Source: Candidatus Altimarinota bacterium | Lineage (GTDB): Bacteria; Patescibacteriota; Gracilibacteria; UBA4473 | Assembly (NCBI GenBank): GCA_050292255.1 | Contig: JBNKLH010000001.1 | Span: 1-25,300, forward strand | Length of the DNA stretch: 25,300 nt | Direction of reading: 5' to 3' | Shown here: in pieces, positions 166-21,770 of the stretch | Layout of the letters: every line of letters begins with the position of its first letter | Numbering within the stretch: the first letter of the stretch is position 1 | Program-made: the position numbers and the translations under genes | Notes under the pieces: model-generated | Told to the model about the DNA's origin: nothing | Database searches by the model: none | Seen by the model: only the letters and a program-made list of their open reading frames with translations

Positions 166-1545
166 CTATTTGTTTTTCAAGTCTGGGTGGTATTTGTCCA
201 AAGTTTTTTGGTTAATACGTTTGAGCTCTGTGATTGGGAATGGTCGGAGCAATTCCCATCCGAGTTCGAGAGACTCGAGGATAGTTCGTTCTTTATCAAA
301 TCCTTGTCCGAGGAATTCTTTTTCGTATTTGTCCGCAAATTCGAGGTAGACTTTATCGATGTCAGAAAGAGAACTTTCTCCCAACACCACTGCCAACTCA
401 CGAACATCTTTCCCACGTGCGTAACACGCAAAGAGTTGATCTTTCAATTTTGAGTGGTCTTCTCGTGTTTTTCCTTCTCCCATTCCGGCACCAGCCAATC
501 GTGAAAGAGATTTCAATACGTCCACTGGAGGAGATACTTTCTTTTGGTGGAGACCTCGGTCAAGCACGAATTGCCCCTCAGTAATATATCCAGTAAGGTC
601 TGGAATTGGGTGAGTAATATCGTCTTCTGGCATTGAAAGAATCGGGATTTGAGTCACAGACCCTTTTGCCGTTCGGATTCGTCCCGCTCGTTCGTAGATC
701 GTAGAAAGGTCGGTATAGAGGTACCCTGGGTATCCTCGTCGTCCTGGAACCTCTTTACGAGCCGCAGACACTTCTCGCAACGCCTCAGCGTAGTTGGTCA
801 TGTCTGTCAAAATCACGAGCACGTGCATGTCTTTTTCGAAAGCCAAGTATTCAGCCAAAGTCAAAGCCATTCGTGGCACCGCAATACGTTCAACCACAGG
901 ATCGGCCGCAGTGTTCAAGAACAAACAAGCGTTTTCAATCGCTCCTGTTCGTTCGAATTCTCGTTGGAAGAACATCGCTTCCTCAAAGGTCACTCCCATC
1001 GCTCCGAAAACCACCGCGAAGTCTGATCCGTCGTTCACTTTCGCTTGACGCGCGATTTGTGTCGCGAGTTCGGCGTGTGGAAGTCCTGATCCAGAGAACA
1101 CTGGCAATTTTTGTCCTCGCACGAGCGTGTTCATCACATCGAGTGAAGAAACTCCTGTTTGGATGAAGTCGGAAGGGAATGTTCGTGAAGCTGGGTTGAT
1201 AGCGGCTCCAGAAATGTCCAACACTTTTTCAGGAAGGATTTCTGCTCCACCATCGATTGGGTTTCCGGCTCCGTTGAAGATTCGTCCGAGCATGTCAGGT
1301 GACACTCCTAGTTGGAGCACTTTCCCGAGGAATTTTGCTTTCAACCCGTCTGTTGAAAGTCCTTGTGTTGATTCGAACATTTGAACCAACGCTCGATCTT
1401 TGTGGGCTTCGAGCACTTTACCCATTTTGGTATCACCGTTGGGAAGGGTTACTTCTACCAACTCTTCGTATTTAGCTCCTTCTACGCCGTCCACAACCAA
1501 AATAGGACCGGCAATCGAGCTGACGGAATCGTACGTTTTTTGCAT
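166..1545 (-). CDS. ntpB: V/A-type ATP synthase subunit B
   Basis: Motifs [46 protein letters not shown] and [18 protein letters not shown]. No Walker A GKT, as expected for the non-catalytic B subunit. Confidence 0.97.
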
Positions 1546-1587
1546 TTTGAAAAATGATTAATACAGAAAAAAACTGAGTTCGCGCGG

Positions 1588-1615
1588 ATTTTAAAAAGAA
1601 TAAGATCGTTGTCAA
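1588..1615 (-). promoter_or_regulatory. sigma70-type promoter for V-ATPase B
   Basis: TTGACA (1615-1610), 16 nt spacer, TAAAAT (1593-1588). Confidence 0.6.
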
Positions 1616-1705
1616 AACATTTGTTTTATTTTTTTACAGAATCCGGTGAATGGAAACGACTTCATGACTAATGAATAATTCATGATAGGTCGCAATGAAA
1701 AAATA

Positions 1706-1734
1706 TTGACAGTATTTCAGTGGAATATCAGAAT
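1706..1734 (+). promoter_or_regulatory. putative sigma70 promoter for ssb
   Basis: TTGACA (1706-1711), 17 nt spacer, CAGAAT (1729-1734). Confidence 0.45.
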
Positions 1735-1779
1735 TGAGACTGCGTTTTAATCTTTTACTATTTTTAACCACACCAAAAG

Positions 1780-2202
1780 ATGAATTTTTTGAATCAAGCG
1801 CAGATTATTGGGAACATTACTCGAGATCCAGACATTCGACAAACAAAGACTGGGCAACCTGTGTGCACATTAGGTGTTGCAACGAACCGACGATGGCGAG
1901 ACTCAGGAGGACAAGTGAAAGAAGAAGCTGAATTTCATAATGTTGTGTGTTGGGGAAAATTGGCAGAACTTGCGGGGCGATTGCTTCAACGAGGGACCAA
2001 GGTGTTCTTCCAAGGACGATTGCAAACTCGAAGTTGGGATGATGAATCAGGAGCAAAACACTTTCGAACAGAGATCGTGGCTCAAGATATGATCGTTCTT
2101 TCAAAAGGAAAAGCCTATGGAGATGATGATGATGTTATGGATGGAGGTGATGAATTTGATAGTGTCTATCCAGAACCATCTCCAGAAGAACTCGATTTCT
2201 AA
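1780..2202 (+). CDS. ssb: single-stranded DNA-binding protein
   Basis: IIGNITRDPDIRQT...VATNRRW...EFHNVVCWGKLAE...GRLQTRSWDD OB-fold pattern with an acidic C-terminal tail ending in F. Confidence 0.96.
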   Translation: MNFLNQAQIIGNITRDPDIRQTKTGQPVCTLGVATNRRWRDSGGQVKEEAEFHNVVCWGKLAELAGRLLQRGTKVFFQGRLQTRSWDDESGAKHFRTEIVAQDMIVLSKGKAYGDDDDVMDGGDEFDSVYPEPSPEELDF

Positions 2203-19424: not shown

Positions 19425-19567
19425 TGGCATCGCCAAGGGGAATACTCATTTCTTACATCTTTTGTTTTACCGTGGCCTGCGGCATCGAACCCTTTTGGGT
19501 TCAATTCCCACGGACTTACGTCCATACAAAAACCACCATAAACCTCAAGGGCTTATGGTGACTTTTG
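19425..19567 (-). mobile_element. 143 bp mini-insert downstream of tRNA-Glu, ending in a 19 bp copy of the tRNA 3' end
   Basis: TGGCATCGCCAAGGGGAAT occurs at both 19425-19443 and 19568-19586. The core shares sequence with the tRNA-Ser insert. Mobility is inferred. Confidence 0.65.
19528..19560 (-). terminator. terminator directly after tRNA-Glu
   Basis: Minus strand CACCATAAGCC-cttga-GGTTTATGGTG followed by GTTTTT. Confidence 0.8.
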
Positions 19568-19642
19568 TGGCATCGCCAAGGGGAATCGAACCCCTGTTAC
19601 CAGGATGAAAACCTGGCGTCCTAACCACTAGACGATGGCGAC
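19568..19642 (-). tRNA. trnE: tRNA-Glu (anticodon TTC)
   Basis: Cloverleaf with acceptor GTCGCCA/TGGCGAT, anticodon arm CCAGG-TT TTC AT-CCTGG, T arm GGTTCGATT and encoded CCA. Confidence 0.97.
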
Positions 19643-19775
19643 TCTGCGTCGTCGGTGACGGCGCATGTTCCATTTCTTTCTTCGTTTTACTACGAAAGAA
19701 ACTTCACTTGCTTTGTAACCTCCGACTTTTCCCCAAAAAATCTTCACTTCGTTCCGTTTTTTCGGGGGCCCCTTT
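19643..19775 (-). repeat. tRNA-upstream hairpin element, copy A (5' of tRNA-Glu)
   Basis: 19730-19775 (minus) matches 21386-21431 (plus) at 41/46 nt. CACCGACGACG lies 4 nt before the tRNA in both copies. Confidence 0.85.
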
Positions 19776-19822
19776 GCTTTTGCAAGTAAAAGAGATAGTC
19801 TATATACCTAAAGAGCCAGCGA

Positions 19823-19850
19823 ATTCTATCGAAAATTTTATATGTGTCAA
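19823..19850 (-). promoter_or_regulatory. sigma70 promoter driving the element plus tRNA-Glu
   Basis: TTGACA (19850-19845), 16 nt spacer, TAGAAT (19828-19823). Confidence 0.6.
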
Positions 19851-19861
19851 AATTTTTTTGA

Positions 19862-19890
19862 TTGATCATTCGGCTTTGTTACGGGATAAT
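19862..19890 (+). promoter_or_regulatory. promoter for the flippase, probably giving a leaderless mRNA
   Basis: TTGATC (19862-19867), 17 nt spacer, GATAAT (19885-19890); the ATG is at 19898. Confidence 0.45.
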
Positions 19891-19897
19891 ACAAGAG

Positions 19898-21376
19898 ATG
19901 TCTCACGGAAAAATACTTTTAAATGCGTCAGCGCAGTTCATTGGGAAAATCCTCACAGTGATAGCGAGCTTTATTATTGTGAAGTTGGTGACCTCTGTGG
20001 GAGCTGACTTCTATGGGAAATATGTGACAGCGTACGAATTTTTGGCATTTTTTGGGGTGTTGGCGGATGCCGGACTTTTTGCCATTGCCGTCCGGGATAT
20101 GAGTAAGAAGGCACGAGAAAATGAATTTGTACTTGGAAATATCCTTTCGTTACGGTTGATTTTAGTCATAACGGTCGTCTTGTTAGCGGGAGTTATTGCT
20201 CAGGTCGTGCCGAATTATTCTCCGGAAGTTCGAGCGGGGATCTGGATTACGGCGATTTCTATGGGATTGACGATCATTGCGGGAACGCTTTCCAGTGTCT
20301 TGCAGGCACGGATGAAGATCCAAAAATTTTCTGCGGCTCTCGTGGTAGGAAAAATTCTTTTAGCGGGATTGATCTACTACATTATTACAAATGCAGAATT
20401 ATTTGGTGGAGCCGGAAATAGATTGCTCTTCCCACTTTTGTGGGCCGGGGTGGCTTCGAATGTTTTATTTTGTGGACTCGTTATCTTTTTCGTTCGTCGA
20501 GAAATCAGGATTCGATTGCAGTGGCATTGGGAATATATAAGAAACACTCTTCGGGTGTCGCTTCCGTATGGTTTGGCGTTGATTCTGCAAACACTCTATT
20601 TGCGATTGGATATTTTGTTGATTTCCTTTTTGCTCGGAGAAATTGCGGTTGGGGTTTATGGGGTTGCCGCGCGGATATTAGAAAGCACATTGGTTCTCGG
20701 TGTTTTCTTTGGACAAGCGGTGTTACCAAAGATTTCTTCCGAAGAATCTGATCACGAAAAAGTTACTCAAACACTTTCCTGGGGAGCCGAAAAATTGGTC
20801 TTGGTATCTTTACCACTGATTATTGGAGTGACGGCATTTGCACCGGATATTGTGAAGATCTTGAGTTCGGGAGAATTCCTCTCCACGGCGACGGAATGGA
20901 AATCAGACATGATGATGCGGATATTGATTCCGACGGTCTTTTTTGCCTTTCTCAATCAGCTATTTACTTTCACCTTGGTCGCAAAGAACCGACAGAATTT
21001 CCTGCTTATCGTGAATGGAACGGCACTTGGGTTGAACGCGATTTTGAACCTCTATTTTCTCCCTCGATATGGGATTACCGCTGCGGCGTTGACGACGGTA
21101 TTTTGTGAAATTGTGGCATTTATTCTTTTGGCTCGAGAAGTATGGAAACATTTTCATCTTCATTTTTCATCCAGAAATCTTTTGATCTTGCTGATAGCAA
21201 ACGGATTGATGTTGATTGAAATTTATTTGACCCCCCTAGGTGAAAATTTTATACTCGCCGCCGCTGTTTGCGGTCTGACGTATGTTGGTATAGTGGGGAT
21301 CTTCTGGAGAAGATTTTTCGCTACCAAAACCTTTCCTCAGATGGAAGGACAAACCATGATTGAAGACCTAGAATAG
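19898..21376 (+). CDS. Wzx/MOP-family oligosaccharide flippase (polysaccharide biosynthesis protein)
   Basis: About 12-14 TM segments. Motifs YGKYVTAYEFLAFFGVLADAGL, LYLRLDILLISF..G..AVGVYG and LNLYFLPRYGITAAA. Confidence 0.9.
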   Translation: MSHGKILLNASAQFIGKILTVIASFIIVKLVTSVGADFYGKYVTAYEFLAFFGVLADAGLFAIAVRDMSKKARENEFVLGNILSLRLILVITVVLLAGVIAQVVPNYSPEVRAGIWITAISMGLTIIAGTLSSVLQARMKIQKFSAALVVGKILLAGLIYYIITNAELFGGAGNRLLFPLLWAGVASNVLFCGLVIFFVRREIRIRLQWHWEYIRNTLRVSLPYGLALILQTLYLRLDILLISFLLGEIAVGVYGVAARILESTLVLGVFFGQAVLPKISSEESDHEKVTQTLSWGAEKLVLVSLPLIIGVTAFAPDIVKILSSGEFLSTATEWKSDMMMRILIPTVFFAFLNQLFTFTLVAKNRQNFLLIVNGTALGLNAILNLYFLPRYGITAAALTTVFCEIVAFILLAREVWKHFHLHFSSRNLLILLIANGLMLIEIYLTPLGENFILAAAVCGLTYVGIVGIFWRRFFATKTFPQMEGQTMIEDLE

Positions 21377-21385
21377 CACCCTAAA

Positions 21386-21507
21386 AAAGGGGCCCCCGGA
21401 AAATCGGAATGAAATGAAGATTTTGTGGGGAGAGGAGGAGGTTGCGAAGTGCTGGGAGCTTTCTGTGAAGCAGAAAACGGAAGACACGCAGCCACCGACG
21501 ACGAGAC
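21386..21507 (+). repeat. tRNA-upstream hairpin element, copy B (5' of tRNA-Ser)
   Basis: Homologous to 19643..19775 on the opposite strand; begins 10 nt after the flippase stop. Confidence 0.85.
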
Positions 21508-21597
21508 GGAGAGTTGCCAGAGCGGTCGAATGGGGCACCCTGCTAAGGTGTTGTATCCTCACGGGTACCGAGGGTTCGAATCCCTCACTCTCCGCCA
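21508..21597 (+). tRNA. trnS: tRNA-Ser (anticodon GCT)
   Basis: Acceptor GGAGAG/CTCTCC, anticodon arm GCACC-CT GCT AA-GGTGT, long variable arm, T arm GGGTTCGAATCCC and encoded CCA. Confidence 0.97.
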
Positions 21598-21770
21598 GCC
21601 TGCGCCAAGGCTTCGGCTGGCAGGCCAGGAGATAAACACGATGTTCTCAAAGAGAATATGGTGTTTTTCTCGTAGAGAAGGGGATTTGGACCCTTGGGTT
21701 CGCGTCGTAGCGGAGCGGAGACCACGTAAAACAAAAGACAGAAGTGAGAAGTAATCCCTCACTCTCCGCC
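21598..21770 (+). mobile_element. 174 bp mini-insert downstream of tRNA-Ser, ending in an 18 bp copy of the tRNA 3' end
   Basis: AATCCCTCACTCTCCGCC occurs at both 21579-21596 and 21753-21770. Core CCACGTAAAACAAAAGA is shared with the tRNA-Glu insert. Mobility is inferred. Confidence 0.65.
21634..21668 (+). terminator. terminator after tRNA-Ser
   Basis: AAACAC-G-ATGTTCTC-aaa-GAGAATAT-G-GTGTTT followed by TT. Confidence 0.7.

Follow-up and report, generated by a model that had tools for sequence, protein, structure and literature searches.

A folded, gene-less repeat in front of two tRNA genes of a Peribacteria genome, read as a probable mobile element

Two tRNA genes in a 25,300-nt stretch of DNA from Candidatus Altimarinota bacterium (contig JBNKLH010000001.1; this whole stretch is called the window below) are each preceded by a similar block. 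What is this block doing there? A sequence-only reading had proposed either a conserved pre-tRNA leader or the left end of a cassette that folds as single-stranded DNA and brackets the tRNA. Our analysis leads to a different answer, which we hold with modest confidence: each block would be a resident copy of a mobile element that is gene-less and non-autonomous, sits passively at the tRNA and keeps its fold for propagation.

Two copies in the window and their common fold

Every sequence element described in that reading was found in the window. The 46-mers at 19730-19775 (minus) and 21386-21431 (plus) are identical at 41 of 46 positions, both are followed by the block GGAGGTT[A/G]C[A/G]AAG, and the end CACCGACGACG lies exactly 4 nt before tRNA-Glu(UUC) and tRNA-Ser(GCU). 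The size estimate of about 130 bp agrees with the true extent of the two copies, about 125-135 nt. A covariance model (R1), trained on 13 copies from this genome, gives them 95 and 118 bits, and their likeness is therefore far beyond chance. The proposed stem of CCCC..AAAA against TTTT..GGGG is the minimum free energy (MFE) fold of both copies (z of -3.8 and -3.3). The minihairpin with its compensatory C-G to T-A exchange holds in part: ACGAAGT lies within the MFE fold of the Glu copy, whereas the MFE fold of the Ser copy leaves an open loop at this place, although ATGAAAT could form an equivalent hairpin. The features are collected in Table 1. A small ORF behind the Shine-Dalgarno-like GGAGG run was rejected, as neither its start nor its frame is conserved among the copies.

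Table 1. Element copies, tRNA genes and promoter-like sites in the window
Feature	Positions	Strand	Observations
Element copy A	19646..19780	minus	Directly 5' of tRNA-Glu(UUC); R1 95.3 bits, E 2.6e-19; alignment with copy B
Copy A domain 1	19731..19767	minus	CCCC-A/U stem, GGA/GAA internal loop, C(GAA)G minihairpin; MFE fold
Copy A domain 2	19648..19726	minus	Long rod, internal loops rich in G/A; closing strands are the purine strand and the CGACGACG tail; MFE fold; helices 3-6 covary
tRNA-Glu(UUC)	19568..19642	minus	ARAGORN; Rfam tRNA 64.7 bits
Element copy B	21381..21504	plus	Between flippase-like ORF stop (21376) and tRNA-Ser(GCU); R1 118.2 bits, E 1.1e-24
Copy B domain 1 hairpin	21394..21430	plus	MFE fold
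Copy B domain 2 rod	21434..21499	plus	MFE fold
tRNA-Ser(GCU)	21508..21597	plus	ARAGORN; Rfam tRNA 54.2 bits
Promoter-like site TTGACA-16-TAGAAT, then boxA-like GCTCTTT	19823..19850	minus	11/12 match; ~45 nt upstream of copy A
Promoter-like site AGGACA-17-TAGAAT	21346..21374	plus	9/12 match; inside flippase-like ORF end, just upstream of copy B

Over the whole family the element measures about 115-135 nt and contains no gene. From 5' to 3' it consists of a GGGGYCCCC start, the hairpin P1, the purine strand GGGGAGAGGAGGAG, the rod P2 and the GACGACGA end, with CGACGACGA as its 3' tail. The rod is built of short helices set apart by G-N-A/G-N-A loops, and such loops also flank the purine core, in which (GAG)3 stands opposite (CGA)3 and which we call invariant. 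Over three phyla the core (GGGGAGAGGAGGAG ... GACGACGA) keeps more than 90% conservation, and the junction purines are nearly invariant. Among 99 family members 86.7% of the cells are paired; the value falls to 62% in shuffles and to 33-50% when partners are slid. Double changes occur at 34 of the 35 pairs, and helix 1 is 94% paired with double changes in 8 of its 9 pairs. The fold belongs to one strand only (254 G.U vs. 97 A.C). Its loops, which comprise 38 GNA triloops, only 10 GNRA tetraloops and not one UNCG loop, are DNA-like and not RNA-like. Searches of Rfam 15 with the window, related CPR loci and the Clostridial and phage copies returned no match to the element, either at the gathering score or at E<=10.

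The copies of this genome share 60-80% mutual identity and all of them keep the fold, while the flipped copy at tRNA-Gly(GCC) has its pairing preserved in two genera, which suggests selection in place.

Copies in Peribacteria, in gut bacteria and in phages

By the covariance model, the 1.17-Mb Peribacteria genome carries 15-16 copies, and 13 of 16 abut a tRNA end; this is the genome-wide count that the earlier reading had named as a check. One further match (C48, E 0.8) was discounted as noise. Matches were obtained in 21 of 41 related genomes, with up to 30 copies in relatives. The element is borne by 9 of the 33 tRNAs of this genome, and the set of bearers differs among genera. In Peribacteria the 3' end of the element is 0-6 nt away from the 5' end of tRNAs, and in one case of a tmRNA, whereas copies in flipped orientation sit against tRNA 3' ends, where they provide a hairpin and U6 beginning 3-5 nt past the CCA. 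Of the 48 matches in G022, G024 and G016, 26 lie at the 5' end of a tRNA or tmRNA, 5 are inverted copies against a tRNA 3' end and 12 are units of tandem arrays; the internal units of such arrays are devoid of the CGACGA tail. Where a copy has no whole tRNA as neighbour, its 3' end adjoins a repeat of the last 12-60 nt of the left-hand gene, which may be 5S rRNA, RNase P RNA, tRNA-Thr, tRNA-Phe or a trmD-like ORF. The idea of a cassette that brackets the tRNA finds no support: the inserts downstream of the tRNAs belong to another, independent family, are missing at 5 of the 9 element-bearing tRNAs, and are present at tRNA-Leu(GAG) and tRNA-Val(UAC), which have no element upstream.

Full-length copies in Oscillospiraceae, Paludibacteraceae and IMG/VR phage contigs are also recognised by this model (E 1e-14 to 1e-4), and a pattern scan likewise supports the identity of the element across phyla. 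Gut Clostridia, Bacteroidales and their phages carry it. An Oscillibacter MAG has 21 copies and an isolate of Pseudoflavonifractor phocaeensis 10; among INPHARED phages just two unannotated fragments were found. Copies in these other phyla sit between protein genes with no tRNA nearby. Calling the strand by the longest ORF gave no information in GC-rich loci, and a start/stop test was used instead: 82 of 153 Clostridial and phage copies have the start of an ORF of 100 aa or more no further than 35 nt from their 3' end, compared to 37 of 153 in the reverse-strand control. Phage copies lie 0-20 nt ahead of start codons. The genes downstream of the element bear no relation to each other.

The earlier reading is partly supported. 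By its position in the window, with promoter-like sites upstream and its 3' end 3-4 nt from tRNA +1, the element would be a pre-tRNA leader. It is not, however, a leader specific to tRNAs: it is a multi-copy, apparently mobile element that stands beside protein genes without tRNAs in other phyla. The scatter without tRNA preference or fixed spacing that would mark a generic REP-type repeat is seen elsewhere, whereas in Peribacteria the preference for tRNAs is strong and the spacing fixed.

Filled and empty sites and the favoured explanation

Junctions filled in phage L175 are empty in L250, L262, L259 and L197, and each of the three L175 junctions has an empty allele in contigs from mouse-gut runs. 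In Peribacteria, the spot of copy B at tRNA-Ser(GCU) is empty at the orthologous sites of four related genera (G001, G018, G008 and G013). One MAG contains five near-identical copies, each in different flanks, and an ELP3 gene holds one copy in frame, which amounts to 54 residues at a place where 5L7J has 4. At filled phage sites the element contributes a C-terminal tail as well as part of a GTG start codon. These comparisons of sequences indicate that the element is mobile DNA. Its ends, as defined by the five near-identical copies and by filled and empty sites, show no terminal inverted repeats, and filled versus empty junctions, in phages and at the Peribacteria tRNA-Ser(GCU), show no target-site duplication. 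Neither end has a conserved target motif; 160 left flanks display a weak A/T bias of at most 0.45 bits per position. A head-to-tail or circle junction (GACGACGA followed by GGGGYCCCC) does not occur among the loci examined. An intron was also considered, but the contigs that seem to skip the element differ by 2-7 replaced letters and therefore represent empty-site strains and not spliced RNA.

How could such an element be tolerated at tRNA genes? Because the window copies lie downstream of promoter-like sites, they most likely act as a passive 5' leader. Transcription starting at the upstream promoter would include each copy in the pre-tRNA, and RNase P, the RNA gene of which is present in the genome, would then remove it; with the leader removed in this way, an insertion would cost the cell little. 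Flipped copies may have been co-opted as intrinsic terminators of tRNAs. The fold would be maintained since the element needs it to propagate, rather than to serve the tRNA, and propagation would most likely proceed as folded single-stranded DNA with an enzyme acting in trans. Movement as a folded single strand is our best guess; folding of single-stranded DNA is plausible in view of the DNA-like loops, the one-strand fold and the lack of inverted ends and target duplication. Several observations are counted against the mobile-element explanation, among them the failure to find a mobilising enzyme, the lack of a conserved target motif at either end, and the signs of selection in place. The conserved core over three phyla would suit a functional RNA no less than the end of a transposon, and tolerance alone fails to explain the exact abutment to tRNA +1 behind leaders of 25-50 nt.

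Alternatives and relation to known systems

Could the element instead serve its host? It might be a cis-acting RNA module, placed as a structured leader or between cistrons, that controls how the downstream RNA is processed, stabilised or protected from termination and was spread by mobility but kept for function, comparable perhaps to the phage T7 RNase III intercistronic sites or to put/boxA-type leaders. This would agree with the orientation in sense with the neighbours in the ORF-start test, with the promoter-like sites in the window, with the strong conservation of the core between phyla, with the retention of the fold in diverged and orthologous copies, and with the predicted terminator role of flipped copies. 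We nevertheless judge such a module rather unlikely, as the same junction is filled or empty in close relatives without visible compensation, a minority of tRNAs bear the element and the bearers change between genera, the downstream genes have nothing in common, one copy is translated within ELP3, and the loops are not RNA-like.

To the idea that the purine core is an active centre, which would make the element a small catalytic nucleic acid (either a self-cleaving ribozyme or a self-processing folded strand with a part in its own insertion at the foot of tRNA-like structures), we give little credence. A related proposal, in which the element is cut at its own 3' end, as a new kind of self-cleaving ribozyme or as the site of a dedicated nuclease, and so gives the tRNA or the following cistron its 5' end, appears very improbable. 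Small ribozymes are commonly found in phages, where the element is intergenic and closely precedes start codons; moreover, its 3' end keeps a set position at tRNA +1 (0-4 nt) and the tmRNA 5' end, its junction purines hardly vary, and it has no Rfam entry. However, there is no likeness to any ribozyme model, the tail is lost from internal tandem units, and flipped, in-ORF and fragment-adjacent copies are incompatible with such a role. Since RNase P RNA is present, no replacement for RNase P is needed.

No mobilising enzyme was found. A reverse transcriptase was rejected as resident driver, since RVT_1 does not follow the element within the family (4 of 18 genomes that bear it, 3 of 7 that lack it). 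The lack of inverted ends and target duplication and the one-strand fold would also suit a REP/REPIN-type repeat moved by the RAYT-like Y1 transposase of the genome. This gene (C203) is single-copy, has orthologues of 40-57% identity in element-bearing relatives, and within the family a Y1/RAYT-like gene accompanies the element in 14 of 18 genomes compared to 1 of 7 without it. The association with RAYT/IS200-like genes that the earlier reading had named as a check is thus real within the family; because the genomes are related, the co-occurrence is not independent evidence. RAYT-like genes are, however, flanked and interrupted by short palindromes of their own, AGTTCGAACT (51 copies in this genome) or GAACCCGGGTTC, and not by the element. 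Furthermore, four element-bearing genomes of the family have no Y1 match, about 190 Clostridial and phage copies have no Y1 homologue in their surroundings (+/-4 kb), no full-length relative with tnpA (Y1) between element ends was found, and none of the CPR Y1 genes that were examined has the element at its flanks. RAYT was accordingly rejected as driver, and we rate this possibility lower still. Least probable of all are att-site arms, that is, scars of integrase-mediated integration at tRNA genes in the same feature class as the tRNA-linked repeats of E. coli: the gene-end fragments of 12-60 nt after the element are the layout that integration leaves, but most copies precede a single intact tRNA without a duplicate, phage insertions are clean with no duplicated gene end, no integrase is adjacent, and a conserved fold with covariation would not be expected.

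In the literature, our searches on the core sequence, on repeats that flank Patescibacteria tRNAs, on tRNA-linked repeats (TLRs) and on Rickettsia palindromic elements (RPEs) yielded no description of the element. If the mobile-element explanation is true, it represents a class of small mobile elements that is widespread, carries no genes, has a conserved fold as its defining feature and is undescribed in Rfam 15 and the literature searched. As the family is common to ultra-small Patescibacteria, abundant gut Clostridia and Bacteroidales, and their phages, exchange across very distant hosts and a mobilising activity that is possibly universal would follow. As many as half of the tRNA genes in Peribacteria would be remodelled by the element, through upstream leaders and downstream terminators, which bears on how tRNA operons, promoters and small RNAs are annotated there. 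Because insertion is clean and duplication-free, between or inside genes, the element marks recent divergence of phages and strains. P. phocaeensis, with its 10 copies, is a cultured carrier in which RNA versus DNA, selfish versus useful, and the enzyme are directly testable.

RPEs are structured gene-less repeats of 100-150 bp that occur between genes as well as in frame within protein genes and proliferate in a lineage-specific manner (PMC1779305). The element behaves similarly, being intergenic, in frame in ELP3 and able to lengthen ORF ends in phages, but RPEs are limited to one genus, whereas the element spans Patescibacteria, Clostridia, Bacteroidales and phages, has a two-domain fold in place of a single palindrome, and is aimed at tRNA ends in Peribacteria. 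The resemblance is one of behaviour and not of family, because there is no sequence relationship. With the hairpin elements derived from IS200/IS605 (PATEs) and with REP/REPIN-RAYT systems it shares the lack of inverted termini and target duplication, asymmetric hairpin ends, a single active strand and a (putative) dependence on an enzyme acting in trans; on the other hand, it has neither the conserved 4-5-nt target beside the left end nor a cognate Y1 gene with element ends known from PATEs, and is much larger and more conserved than REPs. Classical MITEs (Correia/NEMIS, ERIC, RUP, BOX) are likewise short, non-coding, multi-copy, folded and often co-transcribed, but they have terminal inverted repeats and short target duplications, neither of which the element possesses. 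Like an integron attC site, which is a recombination site by virtue of its single-strand fold, it lies directly between consecutive co-oriented genes. However, attC moves with a gene cassette and is poorly conserved in sequence, whereas the element moves alone with a highly conserved core, and the R''/R' boxes of attC (RYYYAAC / GTTRRRY) were not seen in it on direct reading.

The TLRs of E. coli (RtT RNA) are units linked to tRNA and rRNA operons, each terminating in a repeat of the 3' end of the gene beside it, in the case of tRNAs its last 18-19 nt (PMC8144298). The fragments of adjoining gene ends after some element copies recall these units. TLRs, however, lie downstream and always with the 18-19-nt tRNA end, whereas the window copies lie upstream of intact tRNAs without any fragment, and the fragments at other copies are 12-60 nt long and also occur beside the ends of protein genes. 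The independent insert downstream of tRNA-Ser in the window gives a weak, sub-threshold match to RtT (25.8 bits, with a gathering score of 45).

Copies of the element in Peribacteria

The ~130 nt upstream of tRNA-Glu(UUC) and tRNA-Ser(GCU) can be aligned over their entire length. As the sequence-only reading had claimed, the first shared block is identical at 41 of 46 positions, the GGAGGTTRCRAAG block is present in both copies, and CACCGACGACG ends 4 nt before the tRNA in each. Both copies fold into a 5' hairpin (P1) followed by a long interrupted rod, with z of -3.8 and -3.3. The shared upstream element is a real and highly non-random observation.

Coordinates of the element copies and associated features (contigs C8, C110 and C203 belong to the genome of the window)
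Feature	Sequence	Position	Strand	Remark
Element copy A	window	19646-19780	minus	
Element copy B	window	21381-21504	plus	
tRNA-Glu(UUC)	window	19568-19642	minus	ARAGORN
tRNA-Ser(GCU)	window	21508-21597	plus	ARAGORN
Promoter-like TTGACA-16-TAGAAT	window	19850-19823	minus	upstream of copy at tRNA-Glu(UUC)
Promoter-like AGGACA-17-TAGAAT	window	21346-21374	plus	upstream of copy at tRNA-Ser(GCU)
TAnAATC, 4-6 nt, GCTCTTT, example	window	19816-19805	minus	
Region downstream of tRNA-Glu(UUC)	window	19426-19567	minus	terminator, insert, duplicate
Region downstream of tRNA-Ser(GCU)	window	21598-21770		terminator, insert, duplicate
AGTTCGAACT 10-mer	window	11290		
Element in ELP3-like ORF	C8	6699-6808		in frame
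ELP3-like ORF	C8	5601-7265		
RNase P RNA/element block	C110	1575-1760	minus	
RAYT-like gene	C203	229-825	minus	
Flipped element near metK	L018 (related genome G001, contig C12)	~1380-1811		

In the genome of the window (1.17 Mb, 247 contigs including the window's C1, 94.7% complete), a covariance model trained on 13 copies matches 16 places; a weak match on C48 was counted as noise. The element lies directly 5' (0-4 nt from +1) of 9 of the 33 tRNA/tmRNA genes (Glu-UUC, Ser-GCU, Glu-CUC, Asn, Phe, Arg-UCU, Arg-GCG, Ala-GGC and Gln-CUG), and a flipped copy directly follows the CCA end of four tRNAs (Lys-UUU, Arg-GCG, Gly-GCC and Val-GAC, the last truncated by a contig end). Because 13 of the 16 copies thus sit at tRNA ends, of which there are ~66 among ~1,200 gene junctions, their placement is far from random. 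The match on C105 is a fragment with P1 only, and two others lie away from tRNAs. One is in frame within an ORF for an ELP3-like tRNA-modification enzyme, in the linker that joins the radical-SAM domain to the acetyltransferase domain (54 residues vs 4 at this site in Dehalococcoides Elp3, 5L7J). The other lies behind the RNase P RNA gene, just upstream of the 16S rRNA promoter; a terminator separates it from that gene, and on its far side come a second copy of the last 22 nt of the RNase P RNA and another terminator.

Of 41 related genomes the model matches 21, with at most 30 copies in any one of them, and within the same family it matches 17 of 24 other genera. The 3' end of the element adjoins a tRNA in 24 of 30 fetched related loci, the identity of the tRNA varies between genera, and two or three tandem units may precede a single tRNA. 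In a full census of three related genomes, the 48 matches comprised 26 at tRNA 5' ends (one of these being a tmRNA 5' end and another belonging to a tRNA overlooked by the tRNA scan), 5 flipped copies at tRNA 3' ends, 12 tandem units, and 5 that were either unresolved or beside a duplicate of the final 12-60 nt of the left-hand gene. The gene ends copied in this way are those of 5S rRNA, tRNA-Thr, tRNA-Phe (twice, in tandem) and a trmD-like ORF (twice, in tandem).

Two related loci (L046 and L017, on contigs C8 and C3 of G024) carry three to four tandem units in front of one tRNA; the internal units have GCATTTGCC ends and lack the CGACGACG tail, which is found on the last unit only. At L018 a SAM riboswitch and metK are separated by a flipped element, and the start of metK is present a second time, as a diverged 43-nt copy beside the riboswitch.

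Distribution in other phyla and phages, and direct evidence of mobility

The core pattern (TGGGGAGAGGAGG, a 50-80-nt gap and GACGACG) occurs in at least 120 genome contigs and in 98 IMG/VR viral contigs. The genome matches listed are mostly from gut Oscillospiraceae, Ruminococcus and other Clostridia, with some Paludibacteraceae, one 'Candidatus Peribacteria' record and one Patescibacteria MAG. These matches are not due to chance, since the CPR-trained model aligns those from other phyla and phages end to end with E of 1e-14 to 1e-4. Whole genomes hold 21 copies (Oscillibacter MAG), 10 (Pseudoflavonifractor phocaeensis isolate), 7 (rabbit Oscillospiraceae MAG) and 2 (Paludibacteraceae MAG).

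Is the element, then, a pre-tRNA leader, one of the two alternatives that the sequence-only reading had proposed? The promoter-like sites upstream of both window copies place the elements within predicted leaders, and as to position the proposal stands. Its tRNA specificity does not: none of the ~220 non-Patescibacteria copies abuts a tRNA, although 19 tRNAs are present in those loci, and among the core-pattern loci abutment was seen only in three from Patescibacteria. The non-Patescibacteria copies lie between functionally unrelated protein genes (capsid, adaptors, protease, tail proteins, nuclease, recombinase). Clostridial and phage copies are mostly co-oriented with their flanking genes; an ORF starts within 35 nt past the element 3' end in 82 of 153 cases vs 37 in the reverse control, and one ends at the 5' end in 68 vs 19. 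In three Oscillospiraceae loci (L058, L070 and L096) the element is nested in another repeated unit, ordered as a hairpin CTCCCTTG..AAAGGGAG, CTGTC, element and GACTGAGGGA; a paralogous unit in L058 has just AGCGAAGCGA at the expected position.

Mobility is shown directly by filled and empty junctions. Among related phages, the capsid-p103, p103-p126 and p126-p147 junctions each carry the element in some genomes and lack it in others; the nucleotide alignments show sharp element ends, with neither a duplication nor inverted ends. At one junction the element lies precisely between a TAA stop and the following ATG, and at another the insertion fell on an overlap of two genes, giving the upstream gene ~20 C-terminal codons and the downstream gene part of its GTG start. 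Contigs from mouse-gut runs have the empty form of all three junctions; because each differs by 2-7 replaced letters, these are strain variants and an origin from spliced RNA was rejected. Five near-identical copies in one MAG have differing flanks and identical element ends, and no target motif was seen in flank logos. In several Peribacteria genera tRNA-Ser(GCU) follows the same flippase-like gene. At the empty sites (G001, G018, G008 and G013) the stop codon is 0-35 nt from the tRNA +1, while in the window the element lies between this stop and the tRNA, with the original 'ac' before +1 retained to its right.

Fold, strand and candidate drivers

Across 99 aligned members, 86.7% of cells are paired vs 62% in shuffles and 33-50% with slid partners; double changes occur at 34 of 35 pairs, with a covariation score of 0.62 vs 0.19. 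The consensus reads GGGGYCCCC (its CCCC opening P1), U-GGGG-AGAGGAGGAG, rod and GACGACGA. The rod is a series of short helices with symmetric G-N-A/G-N-A loops between them. The purine strand, (GAG)3, could lie opposite (CGA)3 in repeated tandem G.A/A.G pairs with G-C pairs between them. G.U pairs outnumber A.C mismatches by 254 to 97 overall and by 124 to 22 outside CPR; the single folding strand has the same sense as the adjacent genes. For an RNA family the hairpin loops are atypical: triloops make up 79 of the 216, 38 of them GNA (17 being C(GAA)G), and among 75 tetraloops 10 are GNRA and none UNCG. C-GNA-G minihairpins are a hallmark of very stable DNA hairpins. The loop usage leans towards folding as single-stranded DNA, which leaves the earlier suggestion of a single-strand-folding element plausible.

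A reverse transcriptase was rejected as driver, since the presence of RVT_1 does not track the element. The RVT_1 frames contain 5-10 in-frame TGA codons in one related genome (G034) and 2 in another (G023), which suggests that some genomes of the class use TGA as a sense codon. Y1_Tnp does track the element within the family (14/18 vs 1/7). The gene encodes a single-copy RAYT-like protein with orthologues 40-57% identical, and in the genome of the window it is flanked, and interrupted in frame, by doublets of the AGTTCGAACT palindrome, a 10-mer with 51 often paired copies there; in other genera GAACCCGGGTTC palindromes take its place. This looks like a REP/REPIN-RAYT system in Peribacteria. 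As the gene's own short palindromes mark a separate system, and as the genomes are related to one another, little weight attaches to the association, and the RAYT-like gene was rejected as driver. No Y1 gene was found near Clostridial or phage copies.

The best account is a mobile element that is non-autonomous, keeps a conserved single-strand fold, and is tolerated at tRNA ends in Peribacteria and in part exploited there; the results cover its distribution in Clostridia, Bacteroidales and phages, its filled and empty sites and the terminator reading of the flipped copies. Since the core is so strongly kept across phyla and the junctions with tRNA +1 are exact, there is real scope for a function as RNA, catalysis among the options.

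Downstream inserts, leaders and terminators

Both window tRNAs are followed by a terminator, a structured insert of ~85-130 nt and an 18-19-nt duplicate of their own 3' end. The same design is found after Glu-CUC, Leu-GAG, Val-UAC and Gln-CUG elsewhere in the genome. The inserts share a core (CATTTGCACCG ... GAGGATGNCAAATGCCTCGAGTAG), and that of tRNA-Ser matches RtT weakly, at 25.8 bits and below the threshold. Because they belong to another family than the upstream element and occur independently, a cassette bracketing the tRNA is not supported.

Forward copies contain no hairpin-plus-U-run and should therefore pass transcription on to the tRNA; the genome has a gene for RNase P RNA. The other, element-free tRNAs are preceded by normal TTGACA/TAnAAT promoters, and their leaders of 20-35 nt contain a boxA-like GCTCTTT. 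Upstream of most tRNAs of this genome TAnAATC is followed after 4-6 nt by GCTCTTT, which resembles a boxA anti-termination motif within a very short leader.

The flipped copies make up a subfamily of their own. In the sense of the tRNA they present a 9-10-bp hairpin and then U6, starting 3-5 nt past CCA, in all six examined (three in this genome, three in other genera). As this is the layout of a canonical intrinsic terminator, the flipped copies have apparently been put to use, and they appear to be co-opted as tRNA terminators. At tRNA-Gly(GCC) the flipped copy is found in two genera with compensatory changes, which argues for selection in place.
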